The position numbers were made by a program, and so were the translations under genes. Below the pieces are notes generated by a model. It had not been told where the DNA came from, searched no databases, and saw only the letters and a list, made by a program, of their open reading frames with translations. A DNA stretch of 64,000 bases from Escherichia phage PSD2002, in the sequence record OK335775.1; one strand, written 5' to 3'. Of the stretch, positions 29,395 to 58,992 are shown piece after piece (position 1 is the stretch's first letter; each line of letters opens with the position of its first letter).

Positions 29395-29399
29395 GTTAT

Positions 29400-29427
29400 G
29401 GGACTCCGAAGAGTCCCATTTTTGTTT
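29400..29427 (+). terminator. Rho-independent terminator
   Basis: gggactc-cgaa-gagtccc stem-loop followed by atttttgttt. Confidence 0.75.
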
Positions 29428-29446: not shown

Positions 29447-29475
29447 GTGTACATCTCCGGTAGGCATGATACTAT
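29447..29475 (+). promoter_or_regulatory. T4-type early promoter in inverted repeat (PeSL-like), shared leader with 29889 copy
   Basis: gtgtac + 17 nt + tactat; tgtacat...atgtaca inverted repeat; downstream leader tatagac.tgtaccaaataatacgaaaacaaact repeated at 29914. Confidence 0.55.
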
Positions 29476-29516
29476 AGACATGTACCAAATAATACGAAAA
29501 CAAACTGGAGAATAAA

Positions 29517-29885
29517 ATGAAAATCAATCTTAACTCATATATCAAATGTAAAGACCACGACGGTTACAAAGCAATCGAAACTAAAGAAATGCAATGGCAC
29601 TTGTACAAAGAACAATTTGAATTTGTAGGTTGCATGACTCCGGAAGGTCCTTCTGATGACTTCTCTTGGAAAATTATGGTAACAAACTTTTTTACCGGTG
29701 ATACCTACGAACTGAAAACTATCATAACCGGTAAGATTCGTTGTAAGACCTATGAAGATGAAGAAACCGGTTATTCTGAAGATGTTACATGGTATCAAAA
29801 TGGTCGCACTACTGCTGATGAGTTGATTGAAAAAATGAAAGCCAAAGGTGAATTAAATTTAGATAATTGGATTAAAGTTGCATAA
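29517..29885 (+). CDS. Hypothetical early protein
   Basis: 122 aa ORF after early promoter. Confidence 0.5.
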   Translation: MKINLNSYIKCKDHDGYKAIETKEMQWHLYKEQFEFVGCMTPEGPSDDFSWKIMVTNFFTGDTYELKTIITGKIRCKTYEDEETGYSEDVTWYQNGRTTADELIEKMKAKGELNLDNWIKVA

Positions 29886-29888
29886 AAC

Positions 29889-29917
29889 AGTTTACTTTGG
29901 TACAGGTTGTGTTATTA
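29889..29917 (+). promoter_or_regulatory. T4-type early promoter in 9-bp inverted repeat (PeSL-like)
   Basis: gtttac + 17 nt + tattat; ggtacaggt ... acctgtacc. Confidence 0.55.
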
Positions 29918-29967
29918 TAGACCTGTACCAAATAATACGAAAACAAACTAAACCAAAGGATAATAAA

Positions 29968-30333
29968 ATGAACTACATCAACTTCGAACGTAAATATGTT
30001 TCTATCGGTGCGGTTGGTTCTAACGAATACATGTGTTTATGGGAGCATAAAAACGGTTCAGTTTGCGAAATCGACCATTGGGTTTCTCCTGATTATGTTT
30101 ATATGCGATTTGAAAATGGTATCACTCTTTCAATCACTAAAGAAGGTTCTTCTTTTAAAATAGCTTTAGATGATGATTTCCGTCAACGTGATTTAGGTAC
30201 TCATCCTTGCTGGAACGGCGTTAATCGTAAGCTTCTGGTTAAAACCTGGATTCGTCACATCCTGAGCAACCGAGCTAAACCTGAACACCTGGAAGCAATC
30301 TTTGATGTAGTTCTGAACGAATTCGATATCTAA
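29968..30333 (+). CDS. Hypothetical early protein
   Basis: 121 aa from ATG after repeated leader (track ORF start 29878 lies upstream of the promoter). Confidence 0.5.
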   Translation: MNYINFERKYVSIGAVGSNEYMCLWEHKNGSVCEIDHWVSPDYVYMRFENGITLSITKEGSSFKIALDDDFRQRDLGTHPCWNGVNRKLLVKTWIRHILSNRAKPEHLEAIFDVVLNEFDI

Positions 30334-30343
30334 TCTTAAAAAT

Positions 30344-30362
30344 GGAGGCTTCGGCCTCCTTT
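30344..30362 (+). terminator. GC hairpin with UUCG loop (terminator / processing signal)
   Basis: ggaggc-ttcg-gcctcc followed by ttt. Confidence 0.45.
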
Positions 30363-30374
30363 GAGGAAAATATT

Positions 30375-30662
30375 ATGTTTATGACCACTTATTTCGATAC
30401 TCGTAAAAATTTCTGTGAAGTTGTTTTCTCTAAAGCAGGTAAAGACGTTCCTGCCGACAAACAACCTACTCGTGAATCTATTAAGGCCTATGCTGATGTT
30501 GTATGCCCTGTAGAATTCCGTACTGTTAATGGTCGTGATACCTTAGCAATCACTAAGCTCAACCGTGATATCAATATCGACCCTAGTGCCGCCCGTGAAG
30601 TCAATACCTCTGACATCTATGGTGGTAATGTTAAATCACACGGCTTTCAGATGAGGTTCTAA
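30375..30662 (+). CDS. Hypothetical protein
   Basis: 95 aa from ATG with GAGGA RBS downstream of hairpin. Confidence 0.45.
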   Translation: MFMTTYFDTRKNFCEVVFSKAGKDVPADKQPTRESIKAYADVVCPVEFRTVNGRDTLAITKLNRDINIDPSAAREVNTSDIYGGNVKSHGFQMRF

Positions 30663-30856
30663 TGCAACTATTTTTATCGCAAACAGTCCAGTTAAAAGGC
30701 GTAGGTATTCCTGGAATGATTTCCAAGGTTCTACCTGCTTTTAAATTAGGTAATGTTATTATTAAAGAAGCCTACACCGTCTTATGGGTCGATGGAACTG
30801 AAGACGTTCGCATGGGCGGTGAACTGTCTGTAATCAAATGTTTAAAGCGAGGATAA
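30662..30856 (+). CDS. Hypothetical small protein
   Basis: 64 aa ORF. Confidence 0.4.
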   Translation: MQLFLSQTVQLKGVGIPGMISKVLPAFKLGNVIIKEAYTVLWVDGTEDVRMGGELSVIKCLKRG

Positions 30857-30857
30857 T

Positions 30858-31070
30858 ATGTTTAAGAAATTGATTCAGAAATTATTAGGTACGGAAATGG
30901 TCGAAGTGACTTATCGTGTAACTGATTTATCTCCTGTGCATCCACAAGATGAACCATATACTAAAACAATTAAAATGCTGAAATCTGACGGCGGATTATC
31001 TATTAAAGACCGTCTACCTTGTTATGGTCATTGGGCTGATGTAGAGATTATCAGTGTCAAAGATATTTAA
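30858..31070 (+). CDS. Hypothetical small protein, tandem paralogue A
   Basis: 70 aa; MFKKLIQKLLG.E.VEVTYRV.DLSP......IISVKDI shared with adjacent ORF. Confidence 0.5.
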   Translation: MFKKLIQKLLGTEMVEVTYRVTDLSPVHPQDEPYTKTIKMLKSDGGLSIKDRLPCYGHWADVEIISVKDI

Positions 31071-31079
31071 GGAGTCTTC

Positions 31080-31292
31080 ATGATTAAGAAATTATTTAAA
31101 AAGCTGTTTGGCTTGGAACTGGTTGAAGTGACTTATCGTGTTATTGATTTATCACCGCCATATGCTTGCGATGAAGATGCTATTAAAACTGTTGTTATGC
31201 GAAAAACATATCGCGGGCAGTCAATTAAAGAAAGATTGCCAGATCATGGCATGTGGTATGCAACCAAGATTATCAGTGTCAAAGATGTCTGA
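31080..31292 (+). CDS. Hypothetical small protein, tandem paralogue B
   Basis: 70 aa; about 50 percent identical to 30858..31070 with conserved termini. Confidence 0.5.
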   Translation: MIKKLFKKLFGLELVEVTYRVIDLSPPYACDEDAIKTVVMRKTYRGQSIKERLPDHGMWYATKIISVKDV

Positions 31293-31743
31293 GTTAGAAA
31301 TCAGAAGTAATTTTCCGTGGCCATCGTGTGCATTAAGTAACTTTGCTAAATGGCCTTTCGTTATGGATGGTATCCAATTTGGAGGGCTCGAAGGATTCCT
31401 CCAAGGGTGTAAGGTGAGAAATCATGAACAACAAAAACGTATATTTGGGATGTCCGGTCTGGCCGCACAACAAACTGGAAGAGCTTATGCAAGAGCTGCG
31501 GACCGTGGGACGCTTTTCTGGCTTGGAATTCCCTTTTCAAGATACTCTACATCATGGAAAGAGTTGTATACAAATGCATATTTTGAAGCAGCGCTCCAAA
31601 ACAAAGGATTCCGCGACGCATTACAAGCTACAAAGGGCAAAGTTTTAAAGCATTCGATGGCGAGTCACCTTACAGAATGTGATACAATACTAACTGAAAA
31701 AGAGTTTATCGACATCCTAAACAAATTGAGAGATTTATTATGA
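31285..31743 (+). CDS. NADAR (YbiA-like) domain protein, putative ADP-ribose/N-glycoside hydrolase
   Basis: 152 aa from ATG overlapping previous stop; LSNFAKWPF.MDG..F.G.EGFLQG.K resembles YbiA/NADAR core (SNFA.WP...DG...E..FQA.K). Confidence 0.55.
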   Translation: MSELEIRSNFPWPSCALSNFAKWPFVMDGIQFGGLEGFLQGCKVRNHEQQKRIFGMSGLAAQQTGRAYARAADRGTLFWLGIPFSRYSTSWKELYTNAYFEAALQNKGFRDALQATKGKVLKHSMASHLTECDTILTEKEFIDILNKLRDLL

Positions 31744-32378
31744 AACCAGTTATCTTAACAGATATCGATGGAGTATGTTTAAGTTGGCAGTCCGGCTTGC
31801 CTTATTTCGCACAGAAATATAATTTGCCTTTAGAACATATTTTGAATATGATTCAGGACGAACGTTTCTTATCTCCTGGTGAGCTGTTTAATTGTGATAA
31901 TGAATTAGGCGCTCGTTTAATCGAGAAGTACAATCAGTCAGATTTTATTCGTTATCTGTCTCCTTACATGGACGCATTAAAACATATCAACAAGCTCAAA
32001 AAAGACTTCGATTTTGTAGCCGTGACTGCGCTAGGCGACTCAATTGATGCACTGCTGAATAGACAATTCAATTTGAATGCTTTGTTCCCTGGCGCATTCA
32101 AGGAGATTCTGATGTGTGGTCATTCAGAATCAAAAGAAGACCTCTTCATAAGAGCTAAAAATACGTACGGTAAACGTATTAAGTTTTATGTTGATGATTT
32201 GGCTCACCACTGTGATGCTGCATCTAATGTTCTCATGGATATCCAAGTTTATTGGTTAGCTCGTGGTGAACGTGACTTTAAACCTAATTTAGCCGTAAAG
32301 GTTAATTCATGGGACGATATCGCAGCAATCGAATCCCTTCGTAATAATGCCGCAGTTGAATGGATTGCTCGAGGTTAA
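31740..32378 (+). CDS. HAD-superfamily hydrolase (putative nucleotidase/phosphatase)
   Basis: 212 aa; N-terminal ILTDIDGV (HAD motif I DxDG) and later YVDD; ATGA overlap with NADAR gene. Confidence 0.55.
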   Translation: MKPVILTDIDGVCLSWQSGLPYFAQKYNLPLEHILNMIQDERFLSPGELFNCDNELGARLIEKYNQSDFIRYLSPYMDALKHINKLKKDFDFVAVTALGDSIDALLNRQFNLNALFPGAFKEILMCGHSESKEDLFIRAKNTYGKRIKFYVDDLAHHCDAASNVLMDIQVYWLARGERDFKPNLAVKVNSWDDIAAIESLRNNAAVEWIARG

Positions 32379-32379
32379 T

Positions 32380-32658
32380 ATGTTTGTAGTTCATACAATT
32401 TCAGACTATGGTCCTACCACTACAATGGATTATGGTCATGTAAACCAGTTTATTCGTCATGTGAATCATGATTACTCATTTGATGTAAATCCGGCTAAAG
32501 ACCATCCTGTTTGGCGCGAATGCGTCGAACAGGGATTCATTTATGTCCACTTTATGTCCAAGTTCAAATCTGATGGGCGAATGAGATTTGTGTTCTCTTA
32601 TCATAAGCGATTAGACTTGCTTTTGGCTGATGTGGCTTATAATAGAATCCATGACTAA
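32380..32658 (+). CDS. Hypothetical protein
   Basis: 92 aa from first ATG after upstream stop. Confidence 0.45.
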   Translation: MFVVHTISDYGPTTTMDYGHVNQFIRHVNHDYSFDVNPAKDHPVWRECVEQGFIYVHFMSKFKSDGRMRFVFSYHKRLDLLLADVAYNRIHD

Positions 32659-32668
32659 TGAGGTGATT

Positions 32669-34195
32669 ATGATTTTAGATATTTTAAACGAAATTGCTGC
32701 TATTGATTCTACTAAAGCTAAAGAAGCCATTATTGCTCGTGAAAAGGACAATGAGCTTCTGAAACGTGTTTATCGTATGGCTTATACCCGTCGTCTGAAC
32801 TACGGTATTAAAAAGTGGCCAGAACCTGGATTTACATCTCAATCCTTTGGTATGATTACTCTTGAAGACCTTCTTGATTTCGCTGAATTCACATTAGCCA
32901 CACGTAAGATTACGGGTAATGCGGCTATTGAAGAACTGGCTCAAATCATTGCTGATGCTAAGGCCCCGGATGCCGAGGTATTACGTCGTGTAATGATGCG
33001 CGACCTTGAATGTGGTGCATCGATTTCTATTGCTAACAAGGTTTGGAAAGGTTTAATCCCTGAACAACCGCAGATGTTGGCGAGTTCTTATGATGAAGCT
33101 TTGATTAAGAAAAATATTAAATGGCCAGCGTTTGCTCAATTAAAAGCTGATGGTGCTCGTTGTTTTGCCGAAGTTCGTAACGATGGTGTGACATTCCTTA
33201 CTCGTGGTGGTAATGAATACCAAGGGCTTCATCTTTTAGCTGCTGAATTAATGGCGATGACCGAAGAAGCTCGTCAACGTCATCCTAATGGCGTTATGAT
33301 TGATGGCGAATTAGTTTACCATACTCCTAAAGTTGAACCTAAAGCATCTAATGATTTGTTTAGTATGTTTGACGAGGAACTTCCTGAATTAAGTAAAGCC
33401 AAAGAATTCCAAACTGTCGCCGATCGTTCTACGTCAAATGGATTGGCTAATAAGGCTCTTCAAGGAACTATCACCCCATCTGAAGCCGCTGGTATGGTAT
33501 TACAGGCATGGGATTATGTCCCACTGGATGTCGTGTATTCTGAAGGCAAAATTAAAGGTGATAAGTATGATGTACGCTTTACAGCCTTAGAACTTATGGT
33601 GGCTCATAATGTCGTATTGCATGGCACAACGCGTGTTGAAGCTATCGAAAACCAGTGGGTTAATAATCTTGAAGAAGCTAAAGTCGTTTATAAGAAATAT
33701 GTCGACCAAGGTCTGGAAGGTATTATCCTTAAGAACATGGACTCCTACTGGGAAAACCGCCGTTCTAAGAATCTTATCAAGTTCAAAGAAGTAATCGATA
33801 TTGCTTTAGAAGTGGTGGGTTATTATGAACACTCGAAGGACCCTAACAAACTAGGCGGTGTTGAATTAGTATCACATTGTCGTCGAATTACAAGTGACTG
33901 TGGTTCAGGCTTTAAAGATACCACCCATAAGAAAGATAAATCAGGTAAAAAAGTATTGATTCCATTGGAAGACCGTCCTGATTTAGACCGTGAACTTCTT
34001 ATGAAACAAGCTCGTGAAGGTAAGTTGATTGGACGTATTGCTGACTGTGAATGTAATGGTTGGGTTCATTCTAAAGGACGTACTGATACTGTAGGTATTT
34101 TCCTTCCAATTATTAAAGGTTGGCGTTTCGATAAAACAGAAGCTGATACATTTGAAGATGTATTCGGGTCGTGGGACCAAACAGGACTTAATTAA
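32669..34195 (+). CDS. 30: ATP-dependent DNA ligase gp30
   Basis: 508 aa from MILDILNEIA; ligase motifs (KADGAR adenylation lysine, IDGELVY, EGIILK) and overall colinearity with T4 DNA ligase. Confidence 0.9.
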   Translation: MILDILNEIAAIDSTKAKEAIIAREKDNELLKRVYRMAYTRRLNYGIKKWPEPGFTSQSFGMITLEDLLDFAEFTLATRKITGNAAIEELAQIIADAKAPDAEVLRRVMMRDLECGASISIANKVWKGLIPEQPQMLASSYDEALIKKNIKWPAFAQLKADGARCFAEVRNDGVTFLTRGGNEYQGLHLLAAELMAMTEEARQRHPNGVMIDGELVYHTPKVEPKASNDLFSMFDEELPELSKAKEFQTVADRSTSNGLANKALQGTITPSEAAGMVLQAWDYVPLDVVYSEGKIKGDKYDVRFTALELMVAHNVVLHGTTRVEAIENQWVNNLEEAKVVYKKYVDQGLEGIILKNMDSYWENRRSKNLIKFKEVIDIALEVVGYYEHSKDPNKLGGVELVSHCRRITSDCGSGFKDTTHKKDKSGKKVLIPLEDRPDLDRELLMKQAREGKLIGRIADCECNGWVHSKGRTDTVGIFLPIIKGWRFDKTEADTFEDVFGSWDQTGLN

Positions 34196-34415: not shown

Positions 34416-36311
34416 ATGTCCGAACAATTGAATGAGGTATTTGATGGTGATATAAATTTATCTGCTGTCAATTTAAACCCTAAACTTAAAGTCCCACAGA
34501 TTTGGAATATAAAGGCTGAAGGTAACGAGAACCTTGTTGCCCGCATGGTTTCATATACTTCCGAAGGCGATGTAATTCGTCAGGTTAAGCCTGGTGACAA
34601 GTATGTTCATGTCGTTTTAATGAGCCTATCGGCTAAAGGTTCTCCTGCCGAACTCAAAGGTGGATTAGGTACCAATCCTATTTCCGCTATTCGTTCTATA
34701 TTTGATATCGTCTATGAACAGGTCAAGGCCCTTCGTATGGACGCTGTTATGTTCCGTTTTCCTACCAAGAAAATGAAAGGGCAGGAAAAAGCTATACAGA
34801 GGGTATTGGCTAAATTAATAGCCTCTAGAGCAGGCGGACAGTTTAAAGTTCTTGATGCCTTGTATCAATTCACCGGTAAGCATTCGTATGTTTTTATCTA
34901 TCGTAAAAATAAAAATATAGAATCTATAAATGGTATTCCTAATATTAATTTAGAATTGTATACTAAAGTCGAATCTGAAGTCGGTGACGTGTATGTTTCA
35001 AAGAAAACAGGCGAAGATGTTACCAAACTAGAAGCTATAGCTAAGTCCATAGACGAAATAGAAAAATCACGTTCTGATAAAACTGTTATAACCAAAACAA
35101 AGGTTTCTAAACGTGCTGCTATCAATGCTTTATATCCTACAGCAGAGCCTACAGGATTGAGTAAATTTTCGGCAGAGCACAAAAAAGCTTATGCAGATTA
35201 TTCTGCTACTAGTTCCGTTCATTCTTCTGAAGATTCTAAAGAAAGCCAAATAGCTTTAGCCAGTAATAAAATATTAAAAGACACCTCTAAAGAAATGGCA
35301 GAATATTTGGATTATATTTTTAACGGTGTTAATCCATCATTTGAAGTAGACGAGCGCAAACTTAAACTAATTGCTGATATAAAGTTTGCTTTAGAGGCAT
35401 CAGATTCTTTAGATAAATCTAATAGTGTCATAGAGGCTTTAAAATCAGGTAAATCTCATGTAGACATTCTTAGACTAGTCGCTGCGGCCCTTTTAGATGA
35501 TTCAGTTAAAGGTACTTGGGCTAGAGAATCTAAAATCAAGGAAGTAATAAAATCCTTAGTAGCAGTTTATACAAAATCTATCCAACCGTTGTTTAAGATA
35601 TCTGATAATCCTAATTTATCCAAACCTCAAGAAGAGGCAGTCAAAAAGTATACTCGTGGCGGCTACAACCATATAAACAACTTTTTGCTAGGTAAAACAG
35701 ATACCACCGATGAAATGATAAAAATGATTGGTGAGTTGGATTCTACATTTGAAAATGGTACAAAACTTCCTAAAGGAACCATAGTGTATCGTTCTCAGAT
35801 AATGCCTACCGAAATGGCTTTGAATTCTATAAAACATAAGGTGATGTATCTTCCTATTTTTGCATCAACTTCATTGGCTCCTAATATTTTCGGTGAAATG
35901 GGTCATGCTCAATCCAACTTAGACCCTGAAGCTCTTTCTAGCGATATAGATAGTAATCTTGAAGACACCATTAAAAGTGCGACCGGAAGTGCTAGAGATA
36001 CCATTAAGCTAGGGTTAATTATTAAAGGTGCTGATAAAATTAAGGTTATTGTGCCCGGTGACTTGGCTAATTGGTCTACAGAAACCGAAGTAATTCTTCC
36101 TCGTGGGGTTATGCTTAAGATTAATAAAGTATACGGTGCTTCCAAGGGACCTATGGGTTCAATTGGTAAATATGTTTTAGTGGAATGTGAAGTTGTAGCT
36201 ACCGAGCAAATCACAGAGGAAGATTCATATAGCACCGGATTCTCGTTTGGAAATTATGATAGAATTATGTATGAAGATTCTATGGAAAAATTAGCAAATT
36301 TATTTAAATAG
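34416..36311 (+). CDS. Alt-like ADP-ribosyltransferase paralogue 1 (putative injected head protein)
   Basis: 631 aa; conserved N-terminal about 230 aa shared with two downstream ORFs; LNE/VF N-terminus resembles prohead protease cleavage/capsid-targeting site; C-terminal R-S-E ART signature (VYRSQ, FASTSL, TETEVILPRG). Confidence 0.7.
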   Translation: MSEQLNEVFDGDINLSAVNLNPKLKVPQIWNIKAEGNENLVARMVSYTSEGDVIRQVKPGDKYVHVVLMSLSAKGSPAELKGGLGTNPISAIRSIFDIVYEQVKALRMDAVMFRFPTKKMKGQEKAIQRVLAKLIASRAGGQFKVLDALYQFTGKHSYVFIYRKNKNIESINGIPNINLELYTKVESEVGDVYVSKKTGEDVTKLEAIAKSIDEIEKSRSDKTVITKTKVSKRAAINALYPTAEPTGLSKFSAEHKKAYADYSATSSVHSSEDSKESQIALASNKILKDTSKEMAEYLDYIFNGVNPSFEVDERKLKLIADIKFALEASDSLDKSNSVIEALKSGKSHVDILRLVAAALLDDSVKGTWARESKIKEVIKSLVAVYTKSIQPLFKISDNPNLSKPQEEAVKKYTRGGYNHINNFLLGKTDTTDEMIKMIGELDSTFENGTKLPKGTIVYRSQIMPTEMALNSIKHKVMYLPIFASTSLAPNIFGEMGHAQSNLDPEALSSDIDSNLEDTIKSATGSARDTIKLGLIIKGADKIKVIVPGDLANWSTETEVILPRGVMLKINKVYGASKGPMGSIGKYVLVECEVVATEQITEEDSYSTGFSFGNYDRIMYEDSMEKLANLFK

Positions 36312-36319
36312 GATAGATT

Positions 36320-38401
36320 ATGACCCAATTAAATGAAGTGTTCGAGTCCGAAGGTACACTGCCTGTTGTGAACTTGAACCCAAAACTTAAAGTACCTCAG
36401 ATTTGGAAGATTGGAGACGCGGAGTCTCAGTTAGTAGCACGTATGGTATCCTACGCTTCTGAAGGTGATGCTATTAAACAAGTTAAAATGGGTGATAAAT
36501 ATGCCCACGTTATCCTTATGAGCCTTTCAGCTAAAGGTTCGCCTGCCGAACTTAAAGGCGGCTTAGGCCCTACTCCTGTAGATGCGATTAATACTATTTT
36601 TGATGTGGTTTATGACCAAGTTAAAAAGCTTCGTATGGATGCCGTGATGTTCCGTTTCCCTACTAAGAAAATGAAAGGTCAAGGCCCTATCGTTCAACGG
36701 ATTATCCAACGTTTGGTAGCACAGAAAACCGGTGGACGTTTTAAAGTGGTTCCGGCTATGTACCAATTTACCGGTAAACATACTTACATCCTGGTAGTTC
36801 GTAAACAAGCTGATATAGAAGATATCAAAGGTATGCCTGGAATTAATGCTGAATTGTATACTAAGGTAGATTCTGATGTCGGTGAAGTTTATATTTCTAA
36901 AAAAGAAGGCGTACAGGTTACTAAAGAAACTGCTATCGCCGGTAGTATTGCTAAGGTTGAAGAACGTCGCACTGATAAAATGGTTATAACCAAGACTAAG
37001 ATTTCTCGACGTGCTATTGCAGCAAGTCAATCGTTAGAATCTTATCGTAATGAAAGTGGGCTGTTTAAGAAATATGAAGCTACTGCAGTAGATTTTAATA
37101 AACCGGCAACAGTTCCATTAATCCCTGAGGCCCAGGAAATGGTCACTAATAACAATTCTCCTGCGGCTAAAAATAAGGTTGCTAATATAGTAGCTGAAGG
37201 CACTGCTGAAGAATTGCATTACGACTATAAATTGTTCCCACTTCACGGTATTGGTGAAATCCAAGAGAAAATTAAAGAGAAAATTCTTACAGCTATCAAA
37301 AATGAACCTTTGACATCTGTTAAAGCCCTGGAAAAATATGCCTCTACCATTAATACCATTTTCGAAGAATATAAAGGCGAGTGGCTGGCTATCCATAACA
37401 GAACTCGTAAAGGCCAACCTGACGACGTCTGGAATGAATTAACCGAGTCCAAGTGGAAAGCAGCCAAGACTAAGTTCATTAAAAAACGTGTGTATAGTTT
37501 TGCTGGCGTAGGTGGTGGTATTATGGTCGATATTACTATTGCTCGTGAGGGCTCTAAATATACCCCATCACAAAAGCGCGGCATCAGAGAATATTGTGGT
37601 TCAGGATATACAGACATAAATAATCTTCTTTTAGGACGTTATAATCCCCAGAACTATGAGGTTATGAGCGAAAAAGATATCGAATCTGCAGTTAATAATT
37701 TGGATTCCGCTTTTGAAAATGGCGACCGTATACCAGAAGGCATCACAGTTTATCGTGCACAGAGTATGACTGCTCCTATATACGAAGCACTAGTTAAAAA
37801 TAAAGTGTTCTATTTCAGAAATTTTGTATCTACTTCTTTAACTCCTATAATTTTCGGACGTTTTGGTGTTACACACGCTGGTATTGGTCTTTTAGAACCG
37901 GAAGTTCGCAACGAATTGACAGTTGATAAAAATGAAGAAGGAATAACTATTAATCCTAATGAAATAAGAGCGTATAAGGAAAATCCCGATTACGTTAAGG
38001 TTCAAATAGGATGGGCCATTGATGGGGCTCATAAAGTTAATGTCGTATATCCAGGAAATCTCGGAATAGCAACTGAAGCCGAAGTTATTCTACCGCGTGG
38101 ATTAATGGTCAAAGTTAATAAAATAACAGATGCTTCTAATAATGATGGAACAACATCTAGTAATACAAAACTCATCCAAGCTGAAGTTATGACAACAGAT
38201 GAGCTTCAAGAATCTGTTGTATATGATGGTGATGTACTAATGGAAACCGGCGAGTTGGTCGTATATCAAGATGACTTCGATACTTCCGAAAGCCCCTTAT
38301 CTTTTGATTCATTTGTTAAATCTACACGGTTTGATGTACTGCCTCTTTTGGCTTCATGCATAGACCTCTATGACATCCCAGAAAAATTCATCCAAGGGTA
38401 A
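36320..38401 (+). CDS. Alt-like ADP-ribosyltransferase paralogue 2
   Basis: 693 aa; same N-terminal module; ART signature VYRAQ, FVSTSL, TEAEVILPRG. Confidence 0.7.
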   Translation: MTQLNEVFESEGTLPVVNLNPKLKVPQIWKIGDAESQLVARMVSYASEGDAIKQVKMGDKYAHVILMSLSAKGSPAELKGGLGPTPVDAINTIFDVVYDQVKKLRMDAVMFRFPTKKMKGQGPIVQRIIQRLVAQKTGGRFKVVPAMYQFTGKHTYILVVRKQADIEDIKGMPGINAELYTKVDSDVGEVYISKKEGVQVTKETAIAGSIAKVEERRTDKMVITKTKISRRAIAASQSLESYRNESGLFKKYEATAVDFNKPATVPLIPEAQEMVTNNNSPAAKNKVANIVAEGTAEELHYDYKLFPLHGIGEIQEKIKEKILTAIKNEPLTSVKALEKYASTINTIFEEYKGEWLAIHNRTRKGQPDDVWNELTESKWKAAKTKFIKKRVYSFAGVGGGIMVDITIAREGSKYTPSQKRGIREYCGSGYTDINNLLLGRYNPQNYEVMSEKDIESAVNNLDSAFENGDRIPEGITVYRAQSMTAPIYEALVKNKVFYFRNFVSTSLTPIIFGRFGVTHAGIGLLEPEVRNELTVDKNEEGITINPNEIRAYKENPDYVKVQIGWAIDGAHKVNVVYPGNLGIATEAEVILPRGLMVKVNKITDASNNDGTTSSNTKLIQAEVMTTDELQESVVYDGDVLMETGELVVYQDDFDTSESPLSFDSFVKSTRFDVLPLLASCIDLYDIPEKFIQG

Positions 38402-38404
38402 ATA

Positions 38405-40528
38405 ATGGAAAATTTAAATGAGGTTTTTGATAGTGATTCCGCTAAAAACTATCCAGTAACAAATCTTAAACCGGGTTCCGGTATTCCACAGATTTTCTCT
38501 ATCCAAGCACCAGGTAATGATAATCTGGTTGCTCGTATGGTATCTTATGCGTCTCAAGGAGACGCTATTAAAATGGTTAAGCCGGGCGACAAATATGTTC
38601 ATGTTATCTTAATGAGTTTATCTGCTAAAGGCGCTCCGGCAGAACTCAAGGGTGGTTTGGGTACCGATCCACTCGGTACACTGAACACCATTTTCGATAC
38701 CATATATGAACAAATAAACAAACTTAAAATGGACGCGGTTTTGTTCCGTTTCCCTACTAAGAAAATGAAAGGTAAAGGTCCTACCGTTCAGCGCGTATTA
38801 GCTCGCTTGGCTATGGCTCGTACCGGTGGTAAGTTTAAAGTTGTTGACGACATGTTCCAATTCAGCGGAAAACATACCTACGTTCTTTTAGTACGTCGTG
38901 GTGCTAGTATTGAAGATATCAAGGGTATGCCTGAAATTAATGCCGATCTTTATACTAAAGTTGAGTCTAAAGTTGGCGAAGTGTATGTTTCTAAGAAAAC
39001 CGGCCAGGCTGTAAGTAAGGTCGAAGCCGTAGCGGCATCTATTGCACAAGTTGAAGAGAAACGTACTGATAAGGCTGTCATTACTCGTACTAAGATTTCG
39101 CGTCGTATGGCAGCGGCGGCGCAGTATTCTACTGCTGAGCCTGAAACTTTGTCCTCTAAAGAATTGCAGGTTTATAACGAGTTTGAAGCTTCTGTACCGG
39201 TTCACACGGCTGAAGGCCCTGAGAACGAAGGTATTGAACAGATTAGTCAGAACTTTAAAAAAGGTGCCATTACTAAAATGCGTCAGGCTTCTCAGTTTAA
39301 ATCTAAGAGCGAGGACCTTGCCAACTTTAGATACACTATTGCTCTCACACACGCTTTAATGACTGATAGTAAATTTAAACTAAATTATGCTAATAGAGAT
39401 AAACAAGGGTTTGAAATTTACTCTAATAATATGGCATTTTTTAATACAGAAGTCGATAGACTTTTAAGTGGCCTTTCGCAAATCAATACAACCAATAGTC
39501 TGGATATTATTAAGAAAATTGTTAATAACCTGAGTACCCGTTTTAAGGGTTCCCCTTCAGAGAAAGCATCTAGAATTGCTTTCGCTATGGAAGCCGTTTA
39601 TAAACTGGTTAACGATTCTATTAGTGATGCATATGCTTATTCAGGCGAGCTCATTAAACCTAAGGACCTAACCAAAGATGAAAGCAATGCTATTATTGAA
39701 TATTGCGCGGCTGAATATGCTCCTATGAACTTATTCCTTTTAGGTAAACCTGAATCCGAAAACAATACAACGGCTATTAAATTGATTAAGGATTTAGACT
39801 CAGCATTTACTAAGGGTATTAAACTTCCTAAGGGTACTATTTTGTATCGTGGTCAGGATTTGCCATACAAAATTCTGCGCCATAATATCGATAACAAAAC
39901 ATTTTACTTTAAGAACTTTGTGTCAGCCTCATTAAAGCCTAACATCTTTGGTGAATTCGGTAAAAATTATATGGCCCTCGACAACCAAGCCGTTTTTGTT
40001 GGTGGTGAAGGTTCTTTGTCCTCCGCTGATGAGTTGTTTAAATTGGCTAGTGGTAGTTCATCTGATGTGGGTGAAGTCGATGACGAAGAGGTAGAATGGG
40101 AAGAAGACGAGTTTGGTAATCCAATTGCACCTGAAGGTCCTGCAGATAGAATTGCTGAAATTGGTATGGTTATTCGAGGTGCTGAAGCAGTTAAAGTTAT
40201 CGCTCCTGGTGACCTTACAGAATATGCCGAAGAAGCAGAAATTATCCTTCCGCGTGGATTATTGTTGAAGGTTGATAAAGTAGCGGCTTTTGCCATGAAT
40301 GATAGAGTATCTCACAAATACCTTATGGAAGCTACCGTAACGCCTCCTTCAGAGCTCAGCGAATCTGTTTACGATGGTGACCATTTGATGGAAACTGGTG
40401 AAGTTCGCCTGATGGATGGATTTAGTCAATTCTTGGTTAATGAATCCGTTTCTGAAAGCAACGAAGCTATGGAAATCCTTGCCGCGTCTTTGGATATCTC
40501 TTCTTTATCAAATAAATTCAAAATGTAG
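38405..40528 (+). CDS. Alt-like ADP-ribosyltransferase paralogue 3 (variant STS motif)
   Basis: 707 aa; same N-terminal module; ART signature LYRGQ, FVSASL, EEAEIILPRG; extra acidic insert (DDEEVEWEEDE). Confidence 0.65.
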   Translation: MENLNEVFDSDSAKNYPVTNLKPGSGIPQIFSIQAPGNDNLVARMVSYASQGDAIKMVKPGDKYVHVILMSLSAKGAPAELKGGLGTDPLGTLNTIFDTIYEQINKLKMDAVLFRFPTKKMKGKGPTVQRVLARLAMARTGGKFKVVDDMFQFSGKHTYVLLVRRGASIEDIKGMPEINADLYTKVESKVGEVYVSKKTGQAVSKVEAVAASIAQVEEKRTDKAVITRTKISRRMAAAAQYSTAEPETLSSKELQVYNEFEASVPVHTAEGPENEGIEQISQNFKKGAITKMRQASQFKSKSEDLANFRYTIALTHALMTDSKFKLNYANRDKQGFEIYSNNMAFFNTEVDRLLSGLSQINTTNSLDIIKKIVNNLSTRFKGSPSEKASRIAFAMEAVYKLVNDSISDAYAYSGELIKPKDLTKDESNAIIEYCAAEYAPMNLFLLGKPESENNTTAIKLIKDLDSAFTKGIKLPKGTILYRGQDLPYKILRHNIDNKTFYFKNFVSASLKPNIFGEFGKNYMALDNQAVFVGGEGSLSSADELFKLASGSSSDVGEVDDEEVEWEEDEFGNPIAPEGPADRIAEIGMVIRGAEAVKVIAPGDLTEYAEEAEIILPRGLLLKVDKVAAFAMNDRVSHKYLMEATVTPPSELSESVYDGDHLMETGEVRLMDGFSQFLVNESVSESNEAMEILAASLDISSLSNKFKM

Positions 40529-57432: not shown

Positions 57433-58992
57433 TTAGATACCTTTAACATATACACGACGGAAGTAACCATTCAGACCAAGGCTGTTAACGATGTCAGGCA
57501 TACCGCTCTGAATACGTTTGGTAGGAGCCTGTGCAGACGGGTCAGCGAACGGGTTGATACCGATACCGTAACGAGTTTTGAAGCCCATTACCGGTTGGAA
57601 GTTCTTCGGATCGGAACCACGCAGCGGGGTCAGTGCAACGTATGGAGCATAGTAGATACCTGCGTCCATTTCGTTAGCGCCTTTATAACCGATGGTGAAG
57701 TAATCGGAACGTGCATACTGGTCGATGTAAACGCGATATTTACCACCAAGAACACCGGCAAATACTGCTTTGGTTGTGTCAACGTTGAAACCTTGACCCA
57801 GACCTTGAGCTGCATAACTTACAGAAGTATCAACTGCAGCCAGTACGTTAACTACGTTACGGGAAGCGATGATGAAGTTACCAGCACCACGACCGGTCTG
57901 ACGAGCGATTTCGGCTGCTTCTTTATCAATCTGGAACAGAAGGGCTTTAAAGCTCTCACCGGCCCAACGAGCACCACGGATATCAATCGGGTCCTGGAAG
58001 TCAAACACACCAGCTTTAGCGCCAACGGTGTTGGTCATACCAGATTTACCAACCTGTGCAGAGTAGTTAATCCAATCGATAACTTCACGGTTGATTTCGA
58101 GCATAATTTCGGTAGCAAGGATACCGGACAGTTCAGCATCTGCATCCATACCGTGTACTGCACGAAGGTCCTGTGCCAGTTCGATAGAGTAGCTTGCTTT
58201 CAGCTGACGGGATTTAGCTTCGATAACTTGTTTGTCGATGCGGAAGCCCATTTCGTTCCACGGGTTATCGGTAGAACCGTTAAAGCCTTCCTGAAGTTCG
58301 GCGATAGAAGTAGCCATACCTTCAGCCAATTCAGCCAACTTACCAGCTTCAATCAAAGCGGTAACAGCAACATCCAGTTTAGCGGCATCAGTAGCAGCAG
58401 CATCAACGGTTACGGCTTCGACAGCCTGGAAGTGTGCAGCACCGGTAGCTTCGAAGAAGTGAGAATAAATTTTACCAACTTCCAGAACTTTGCTTGCAGC
58501 CAGTGCTTCGAAAGTTTCAGCAGCACCCTGACCAGAGAACATAGCGTCTGGAGAATACATCGGATGGAAAGCTTCTTTAGCGCCAGAAGCGATAGGGTCT
58601 TTACCATAAACTGCACGAAGGGCAAATACCTGGCCGGTAGGGTTATTCAGAGGCTGAACACCACAAATATCAAAAGCAATCAGATGAGGAATAGCACGAC
58701 GAACCATACCCATTACTGCCGGCCCAATCTGAGTTACAGCACCAGAAGTCTGGCCAGCTGCGATATTGGTAGCATCATAACCGTGGTCACCACCAATTTC
58801 AGCTTCGGTCAGGAAAGAACCAAATGCTTCAGAGATTTTTTCATCACGATATTCCGGAGCAGTCAGGATGTCTTGTTCCTGGTTTTCGAAAATTTTAGCG
58901 ATGATAGCTTGTTTAGAAGCACCCACGATTTCAGGAAGGGCTTCGTTTTCCAGCAGAGCGGACCATTTTTGAACTAATGCATTCTTTTTCAT
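57433..58992 (-). CDS. 23: Major capsid protein gp23
   Basis: 519 aa; near-identical blocks to T4 gp23 (EIGGDHGY, ATNIAAGQTSGAVTQIGPAVMGMVRRAIP, MGFKTRYGIGINPFA, FRRVYVKGI). Confidence 0.95.
   Translation of the reverse strand: MKKNALVQKWSALLENEALPEIVGASKQAIIAKIFENQEQDILTAPEYRDEKISEAFGSFLTEAEIGGDHGYDATNIAAGQTSGAVTQIGPAVMGMVRRAIPHLIAFDICGVQPLNNPTGQVFALRAVYGKDPIASGAKEAFHPMYSPDAMFSGQGAAETFEALAASKVLEVGKIYSHFFEATGAAHFQAVEAVTVDAAATDAAKLDVAVTALIEAGKLAELAEGMATSIAELQEGFNGSTDNPWNEMGFRIDKQVIEAKSRQLKASYSIELAQDLRAVHGMDADAELSGILATEIMLEINREVIDWINYSAQVGKSGMTNTVGAKAGVFDFQDPIDIRGARWAGESFKALLFQIDKEAAEIARQTGRGAGNFIIASRNVVNVLAAVDTSVSYAAQGLGQGFNVDTTKAVFAGVLGGKYRVYIDQYARSDYFTIGYKGANEMDAGIYYAPYVALTPLRGSDPKNFQPVMGFKTRYGIGINPFADPSAQAPTKRIQSGMPDIVNSLGLNGYFRRVYVKGI

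Follow-up and report, generated by a model that had tools for sequence, protein, structure and literature searches.

The locus analysed here lies in Escherichia phage PSD2002 (OK335775.1), in a stretch of 64,000 nucleotides that is called the window below. It carries two adjacent reading frames of identical length, and the question it raises is whether they are true paralogues, how the pair arose and what it may do for the phage. The two frames are as follows.

30858 to 31070, + strand: copy A, the resident allele of gene 30.4; 70 aa, pI 6.7, loop type VHPQD
31080 to 31292, + strand: copy B, a derived gene 30.4 paralogue; 70 aa, pI 9.3, loop type PYACD

Both copies are in the same frame with a 9-base spacer between them. 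Their proteins aligned without gaps at 40 of 70 positions (57% identity; E = 1e-25, BLASTP) and their nucleotide sequences are 65% identical. None of 100,000 shuffled versions of B reached 40 identities. The initial annotation had described adjacent 70-aa paralogues with conserved termini and a divergent centre. The termini are as quoted there, the two frames are true paralogues, and the observation of a tandem pair was thereby confirmed.

Both copies can be assigned to the T4 gene 30.4 family. Residues 1-70 of each matched positions 1-72 of the phrog_2042 profile, with E values of 2.4e-34 for A and 4.1e-26 for B, and PF26911 (Phage_T4_Y12I) is precomputed on all 32 close homologues. Scans of A and B against Pfam-A (in a copy lacking PF26911), NCBIfam and PADLOC gave nothing meaningful. 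The residues that are invariant in a 31-sequence family alignment (K4, L5, K8, E16, V17, Y19, D23, K42, R52, G57, W59, S66 and K68) are present in both copies. The family is narrow: a profile of the 31 members, searched against 1.84 billion representative proteins, returned only three clusters and two spurious repeat proteins, and within that search it was confined to T-even-type phages. One of the three clusters is T4's own 68-residue gp30.4 (UniProt Q02405; PF26911; PHROG 2042), an uncharacterised early protein which resembles the copies in family, in length (68-72 aa) and in its position between 30.5 and 30.3/adfN, with a stop codon overlapping the adfN start. For this T4 member it is known that expression is early and that the gene is dispensable. 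Both its RNA and its protein were classed as early (PMC9697503 supplement), which agrees with the earlier description of the pair as small early proteins, and the gene is non-essential on E. coli K-12, where transposon insertions were recovered at 21 of 21 sites (preprint 10.1101/2025.11.20.689424). No functional statement on gp30.4 was found in the literature on gp30.4, the 30.x genes, Y12I or WG01/QL01. T4 and most of its relatives have one 30.4 copy, whereas the window has two, and copy B alters nearly invariant family residues, for example RLPGYGHWAD to RLPDHGMWYA.

The window comes from a T4-like Dhakavirus genome, and its positions 29500-32700 are 99.3% identical to Shigella phage PSD9 and 97.4% identical to Escherichia phage WG01. 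The genes follow the order of the T4 rIII-to-ligase early cluster (30.8, 30.7, 30.6, 30.5, the pair, 30.3, 30.2, 30.1 and DNA ligase), and the 30.5 - 30.4 - 30.3 synteny was kept in every locus examined, including IME08, PSD9, PP01 and T4-type contigs. The pair is enclosed by two genes.

30662 to 30856, + strand: gene 30.5 homologue, 64 aa (phrog_1690, E = 1e-28), at the same position as 30.5 of IME08
31285 to 31743, + strand: gene 30.3, i.e. adfN, 152 aa, full length (Pfam Phage_30_3, E = 4e-64)

The stop codon of the 30.5 homologue overlaps the ribosome-binding region of copy A. At the other end, the last 8 bases of copy B (ATGTCTGA) contain the start codon of adfN, which overlaps the stop codon of B; in the window this overlap belongs to copy B only, and B separates A from adfN. 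The adfN stop in turn overlaps the start of 30.2 (ATGA; 30.2 at 31740-32378, + strand). No Shine-Dalgarno sequence precedes adfN, where the calculated duplex is -0.7 kcal/mol versus -5.4 to -8.7 kcal/mol for the six upstream genes, and the value of -8.7 kcal/mol for copy B is the strongest in the cluster. The missing Shine-Dalgarno sequence, the start codon inside B and the ATGA overlap together make translational coupling likely, suggesting that 30.4, adfN and 30.2 form one coupled unit. Promoter-like and terminator-like sites were absent between 30.8 and the ligase gene and also between A and B, so the pair probably sits within a single early transcription unit. Farther upstream, a terminator-like hairpin after 30.9 (29398-29419, + strand) is followed by a promoter-like site before 30.8 (29466-29493, + strand).

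A few minor features of the neighbouring genes were observed as well. An ORF of 74 aa lies in an alternative frame inside adfN (31424-31648, + strand) and corresponds to 30.3' in T4-type records and to orf194 in IME08. In the IMG/VR copy of a 155-kb phage (L011, 2697-3065), an internal deletion removes the 5' part of adfN and leaves 30.4 intact. Gene 30.2 encodes 212 aa in the window, PSD9 and WG01 and 271-279 aa in Gaprivervirus and T4-type loci (e.g., L005, 2170-2994); the C-terminal tail is rich in Q, G and P in TH44, the only longer translation read. An N-terminal DxDGV motif of 30.2 recalls HAD phosphatases, and a Pfam match is absent.

The initial annotation proposed a recent duplication, in part on account of stretches of identical nucleotides shared by the two frames. 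Such stretches do exist, as runs of 17 and 20 bases.

30903 to 30919, + strand: shared block 1 in copy A, GAAGTGACTTATCGTGT, 17 bases, identical to 31125-31141 in copy B
31045 to 31064, + strand: shared block 2 in copy A, AGATTATCAGTGTCAAAGAT, 20 bases, identical to 31267-31286 in copy B

Codon-column shuffling (20,000 rounds) gave P = 0.037 for a longest run of at least 20 bases and P = 0.0009 for both runs together. Of the conserved codons with four-fold or higher degeneracy, 6 of 7 inside the blocks were identical versus 0 of 13 outside (Fisher p = 2e-4, an optimistic value because the blocks were defined post hoc). The blocks match codons with little synonymous variation throughout the family (ACT encodes T18 in all 30 sequences and GTC encodes V67 in 28 of 29). 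Since synonymous diversity at these codons is low across the whole 30.4 family, the blocks are no sign of youth and reflect either constraint on the nucleotides or repeated homogenisation. Of the two, the 3' block is found directly before and inside the adfN start, and the last codons AGT GTC AAA GAT are conserved at the nucleotide level family-wide.

Over the full frames the divergence between A and B is large, with pS of 0.65, dS of 1.52, dN of 0.33 and dN/dS of 0.22 (Nei-Gojobori). Because synonymous sites are saturated, a recent duplication is unsupported, and the family-wide occurrence of the blocks and the same A-B junction in two genera (see below) also speak against it; the two copies diverged long ago. 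Diversification after the duplication, the other half of that proposal, did take place, but it was asymmetric. Copy A is an ordinary family member, and its protein is 96% identical to the single copy of PSD9; it ends in ...VKDI-TAA where single-copy phages have ...VKDV-TGA. Copy B differs from the consensus in eight columns with conservation of 90% or more; among these changes, Y56H, H58M and A60Y alter the RLPGYGHWAD motif, which is otherwise fixed. As judged from the alignment, copy B is the most derived member of the 30.4 family. P0023, which has a B-like loop (YEFCE), was considered as an ancestor of B and rejected; its nucleotide distance to B is no closer than that of A.

Within B, dN/dS across genera was 0.10-0.15 in the two comparisons that had five or more synonymous differences, indicating that B is kept under purifying selection. 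Regional dN/dS never exceeded 1. Purifying selection acts at the amino-acid level over the whole ORF (ratio 0.1-0.2), with synonymous changes throughout the conserved N-terminal helix. Variation in the family is concentrated in the centre: among 31 sequences, the mean column entropy was 0.39 bits for the 26 N-terminal columns, 0.45 bits for the 23 C-terminal columns and 1.33 bits for the centre, and 16 distinct loop motifs of 5-7 residues were found. This variability of the centre could be due to relaxed constraint.

A single 30.4 gene was found in PSD9, IME08, PP01, PhAPEC2, a Yersinia phage and all nine IMG/VR loci, and two 30.4 places were found in 13 of the 219 phage records having a 30.4 match. 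Copy B occurred at 90% identity or more in 14 records from 13 distinct phages. Among them, phage 212 carries an A/B fusion only, and about 12 database genomes have B beside a second 30.4 copy. In other phage records the best match to B was below 60% protein identity. The tandem arrangement was present in all seven B genomes that were read, namely WG01 (ORF208/ORF207), dhaeg (gp55/gp56), TH44, PSD2001, CJ20, P896 and fDHCT2, which belong to Dhakavirus and Gaprivervirus. Together with the window these make eight tandem loci, and both ORFs are intact in all eight. The upstream partner varies among tandem phages (loop types VHPQD, WARNI and HTADHL) and B is nearly constant.

These published pairs have the same A-junction-B layout as the window, with B 93-99.5% identical at the nucleotide level and both copies of WG01 at 99.5%. 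The window differs from them in that its pair lies on a patch set in a PSD9-like backbone and in a private G55C change in copy A. Comments on the duplication were found neither in the records of the tandem phages nor in the published literature. The tandem pair is thus already deposited but unremarked, and the 30.4 family is catalogued yet uncharacterised. The '30.4(A)' and '30.4(B)' of phage LZ (FN868249, 1713-1917) were considered as a precedent and rejected, because they are two halves of one split 30.4 gene. In its scope the finding is modest, a small, already sequenced variation in an accessory gene cluster of T4-like phages, consisting of a duplicated accessory gene in a mosaic region.

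The structure of the junction bears on how often the pair arose.

31065 to 31079, + strand: A-B junction, ATTTAAGGAGTCTTC, 15 bases; last codon and stop of A, then the Shine-Dalgarno sequence AAGGAG (31069-31074) for B

The junction is common to all eight tandem loci in the two genera, with only two variable bases. In these loci A ends with ...GAT ATT TAA, followed by GGA[G/A][T/C]CTTC ATG, and single-copy genes end with ...GAT GTC TGA. The extra DNA is an inserted 222-base B unit that follows the shared GAT, with block 2 as a 20-base direct repeat on either side. One conserved junction of this kind points to a single origin of the A-B tandem.

The B unit has moved from one phage lineage to another by homologous recombination. 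When the window was compared with the Gaprivervirus phages TH44 and PSD2001, B showed 98.1-98.6% nucleotide identity and 30.7, 30.6, 30.5, A, adfN and 30.2 showed 73-92%; across Dhakavirus and Gaprivervirus as a whole, B is 93-99.5% identical and its neighbouring genes are 73-92% identical. Parts of adfN are also near-identical between the genera, so the high cross-genus identity of B could partly be hitch-hiking with these linked segments. A recombinant patch was also recognised in the window.

30640 to 31690, + strand (approximate limits): recombinant patch, from a sliding identity profile

The patch is closer to WG01 (98-100% in most windows of the profile) than to PSD9 (95-100%), and the flanks on both sides are 100% PSD9-like. 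It carries the pair, which PSD9 lacks. The single copy of PSD9 was considered as a deletion product of the window's pair and rejected, since its 3' third is unlike both A and B.

Genes that join the two copies were found in phage 212 and in three metagenome contigs (P0002), one in each. Their first 45 bases resemble the A of Gaprivervirus (1 difference) and the remainder resembles B (0-1 differences), the result of an exact 222-base deletion through a crossover in shared block 1. The locus is a clean natural example of how short nucleotide-conserved blocks permit the insertion of a 222-base cassette, its transfer between genera and its re-fusion. A fusion of a different kind, made by readthrough of the TAA stop between A and B in their common frame, found no support.

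The pair lies directly upstream of adfN, whose product, a NADAR ADP-ribosylglycohydrolase, is both required and sufficient for T-even phages to defeat the DarTG1 toxin-antitoxin defence (PMC11257639). The host-interaction or anti-defence setting suggested by the initial annotation is consistent with this accessory counter-defence neighbourhood, and an anti-defence role for the 30.4 pair is plausible. Public transposon sequencing of T4 provides relevant data. In the comparison 'Control vs DarTG1' only two genes were significant, 30.3/adfN with a log2FC of -7.25 and 30.4 (10.1101/2025.11.20.689424, Extended Data Table 6, Data S6). For 30.4 the mean count over 21 sites fell from 375.9 to 108.0 (log2FC -1.79, p = 0.0001, adjusted p = 0.014) in what is apparently a single replicate, and with DarTG2 it was unaffected (log2FC -0.03, p = 0.93) (10.1101/2025.11.20.689424). 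Gene 30.5 showed a log2FC of -3.0 with DarTG1 that came from a jackpot site (p 0.64) (10.1101/2025.11.20.689424). The main text of the preprint does not mention 30.4; its authors argue that polar effects of the HIDEN-SEQ insertions are not widespread and concede that local ones are possible (10.1101/2025.11.20.689424). Thus, T4 30.4 is the only other gene that mattered against DarTG1 in these data, and its authors did not comment on it. The DarTG1-specific phenotype of the T4 insertions fits either polarity on adfN or a genuine helper role, and it may be pure polarity.

AdfN did not detoxify DarT1 in uninfected cells, rescued T5 very modestly (less than half a log of plaquing) and did not rescue Bas25, which its authors attributed to a preference for hydroxymethylated DNA (PMC11257639). 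AdfN alone did rescue RB69 (PMC11257639), and 30.4 in trans was thus not needed there, though RB69 has its own 30.4. Homologues of adfN were found in 1510 phage records from many genera, and 30.4 does not accompany all of them: the ORFs in front of adfN in Krischvirus, Slopekvirus and Acinetobacter phages gave no match to the 30.4 profile. The presence of adfN in other genera behind unrelated ORFs counts against an obligate helper role of 30.4.

AlphaFold2 models based on the 31-sequence alignment gave one topology for both copies, with pLDDT of 86.5 for A and 83.6 for B. The predicted elements are a helix (residues 2-10), a strand (14-23), the hypervariable loop (24-33), a strand (34-41), a short helix (49-52) and a strand (60-69). 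The N-terminal helix (residues 2-11) is amphipathic, with muH of 0.66 in A and 0.71 in B and 3-4 lysines, and its amino acids are conserved despite synonymous changes. Membrane-targeting helices of the MinD type are short, terminal and of high hydrophobic moment, with a basic face. The helix of the 30.4 proteins may be of this kind, or it may only pack against the sheet. Neither structural nor sequence analogues of known function turned up in PADLOC, NCBIfam, PDB sequences (by profile search) or folds. The anatomy of the family, with its conserved scaffold, single hypervariable loop and derived second copy, is that of a specificity-evolving binder.

What the pair is and how it arose are well supported, and as to function we infer, as the most economical reading, that the 30.4 family consists of small binders made early, whose loop can evolve, within an accessory counter-defence cluster, and that the frame beside adfN doubles as its translational leader. 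The best explanation of the locus as a whole, to which we assign a probability of about 45%, is that of ancient tandem 30.4 paralogues heading a coupled 30.4 - adfN - 30.2 string, with a mobile B, both acting as accessory counter-defence or host-interaction binders. In this explanation, A and B are ancient tandem copies of the T-even early gene 30.4 at the head of that string, and the data show A to be an ordinary allele of the locus and B a strongly derived copy retained by purifying selection. The direct-repeat-flanked 222-base B unit, whose single junction points to one origin, has spread by homologous recombination, the window being a PSD9-like backbone with a WG01-like patch that carries the pair, and recombination in the shared blocks has removed the unit again in some phages, leaving A/B fusion genes. 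Beyond this, each copy would be a small binding protein with an amphipathic N-terminal helix and a three-stranded sheet, in which the loop between β1 and β2 sets the specificity, and A and B together would give the phage two loop specificities. The 30.4 family would serve in counter-defence or host interaction as an accessory factor, linked to what adfN does against DarTG1. Since adfN has no ribosome-binding site of its own, it probably depends on ribosomes finishing the upstream 30.4 copy; the minimum role of 30.4 would then be in cis, with adfN served by ribosomes that finish the preceding copy, here B, and an additional role in trans is possible.

A role in cis might even be the only one. 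The 30.4 frames would then be translated leaders for adfN with near-functionless proteins, and B would be kept because its strong Shine-Dalgarno sequence raises AdfN output. The architecture suits this proposal, as adfN starts on the 30.4 stop without a Shine-Dalgarno sequence, B has the strongest such site in the cluster and the AGT GTC AAA GAT codons are conserved as nucleotides; the depletion of 30.4 insertions with DarTG1 was also partial (-1.79 versus -7.25 for adfN). However, amino-acid-level selection covers the whole ORF, including an N-terminal helix that tolerates synonymous change, T4 gp30.4 was detected as a protein and copy A, which is away from adfN, is still intact in all eight tandem loci, and these observations together count against a purely cis role. 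The HIDEN-SEQ authors moreover argue against widespread polar effects in their data, and we regard a function confined to cis as rather unlikely. If gp30.4 instead acts in trans, it could bind AdfN, DarT1 or ADP-ribosylated hydroxymethyl-C DNA, either as a T-even component that AdfN needs or as a direct anti-DarT1 factor, with A and B recognising different variants. This would agree with 30.4 being the sole other DarTG1-conditional gene of T4, with the failure of AdfN in uninfected cells and its very modest or absent effect on T5 and Bas25 (PMC11257639) and with the restriction of the family to T-even-type phages, in which its adjacency to adfN is invariant. Polarity accounts more simply for the same data, though, other genera of the T4 superfamily have no 30.4 homologue before adfN, and 30.4 and adfN alleles show no obvious co-variation (B is 98.6% identical where adfN is 92.4%); we consider action in trans quite unlikely. 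Only a slim chance is given to the more specific version, in which 30.4 is a T-even-specific helper required by AdfN and the loop and the additional B paralogue follow changes in DarT1 or in a different defence target. If true, the helper reading would explain the failure of AdfN against DarT1 outside T-even infection, and 30.4 and adfN would be a two-component counter-defence module.

The tandem may also be a neutral by-product of recombination between divergent 30.4 alleles, with B redundant and the pair being lost. The pair is indeed rare (13 of 219 phage records) and collapses readily into fusions, and T4 can dispense with 30.4 on K-12. Yet neither ORF is broken in any tandem locus read, and B, which purifying selection maintains, is better conserved between genera than any other gene of the region. 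The fusion products retain the body of B, which suggests that it is B, not A, that is kept. We give this neutral origin only a slight chance.

Other viral systems offer partial parallels. Gene accordions, in which extra copies are amplified under defence pressure, reportedly occur at poxvirus K3L and at T4 tifA against ToxIN. Accordions are recent, with near-identical copies in variable number. The 30.4 pair resembles them as an extra tandem copy of a small accessory viral gene in a counter-defence setting, but its copies are synonymously saturated (pS 0.65, dS ~1.5) instead of near-identical, the copy number is only one or two, and a single junction is shared by all tandem loci read. The tail-fibre adhesin gp38 of T-even phages has conserved flanks (glycine-rich motifs) around a hypervariable segment that is shuffled. 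In both cases a hypervariable coding segment lies between short blocks of conserved nucleotides, at which recombination takes place. Unlike gp38, 30.4 is an early cytoplasmic gene and no virion adhesin, and its recombination is seen in fusion genes and patch transfer only.

Further tandem paralogues were observed elsewhere in the window. Three of ~630-710 aa with ~40% mutual identity (34416-36311, 36320-38401 and 38405-40528, + strand), each with an ADP-ribosyltransferase domain (PF03496), form an Alt-like triple just downstream of the ligase gene. Two others of 426 and 427 aa with 55% identity belong to the gp23/gp24 capsid family PF07068 (54452-55732 and 55732-57015, - strand). They adjoin the major capsid protein gene (57433-58992, - strand), and this pair looks like a duplicated vertex protein gene 24.
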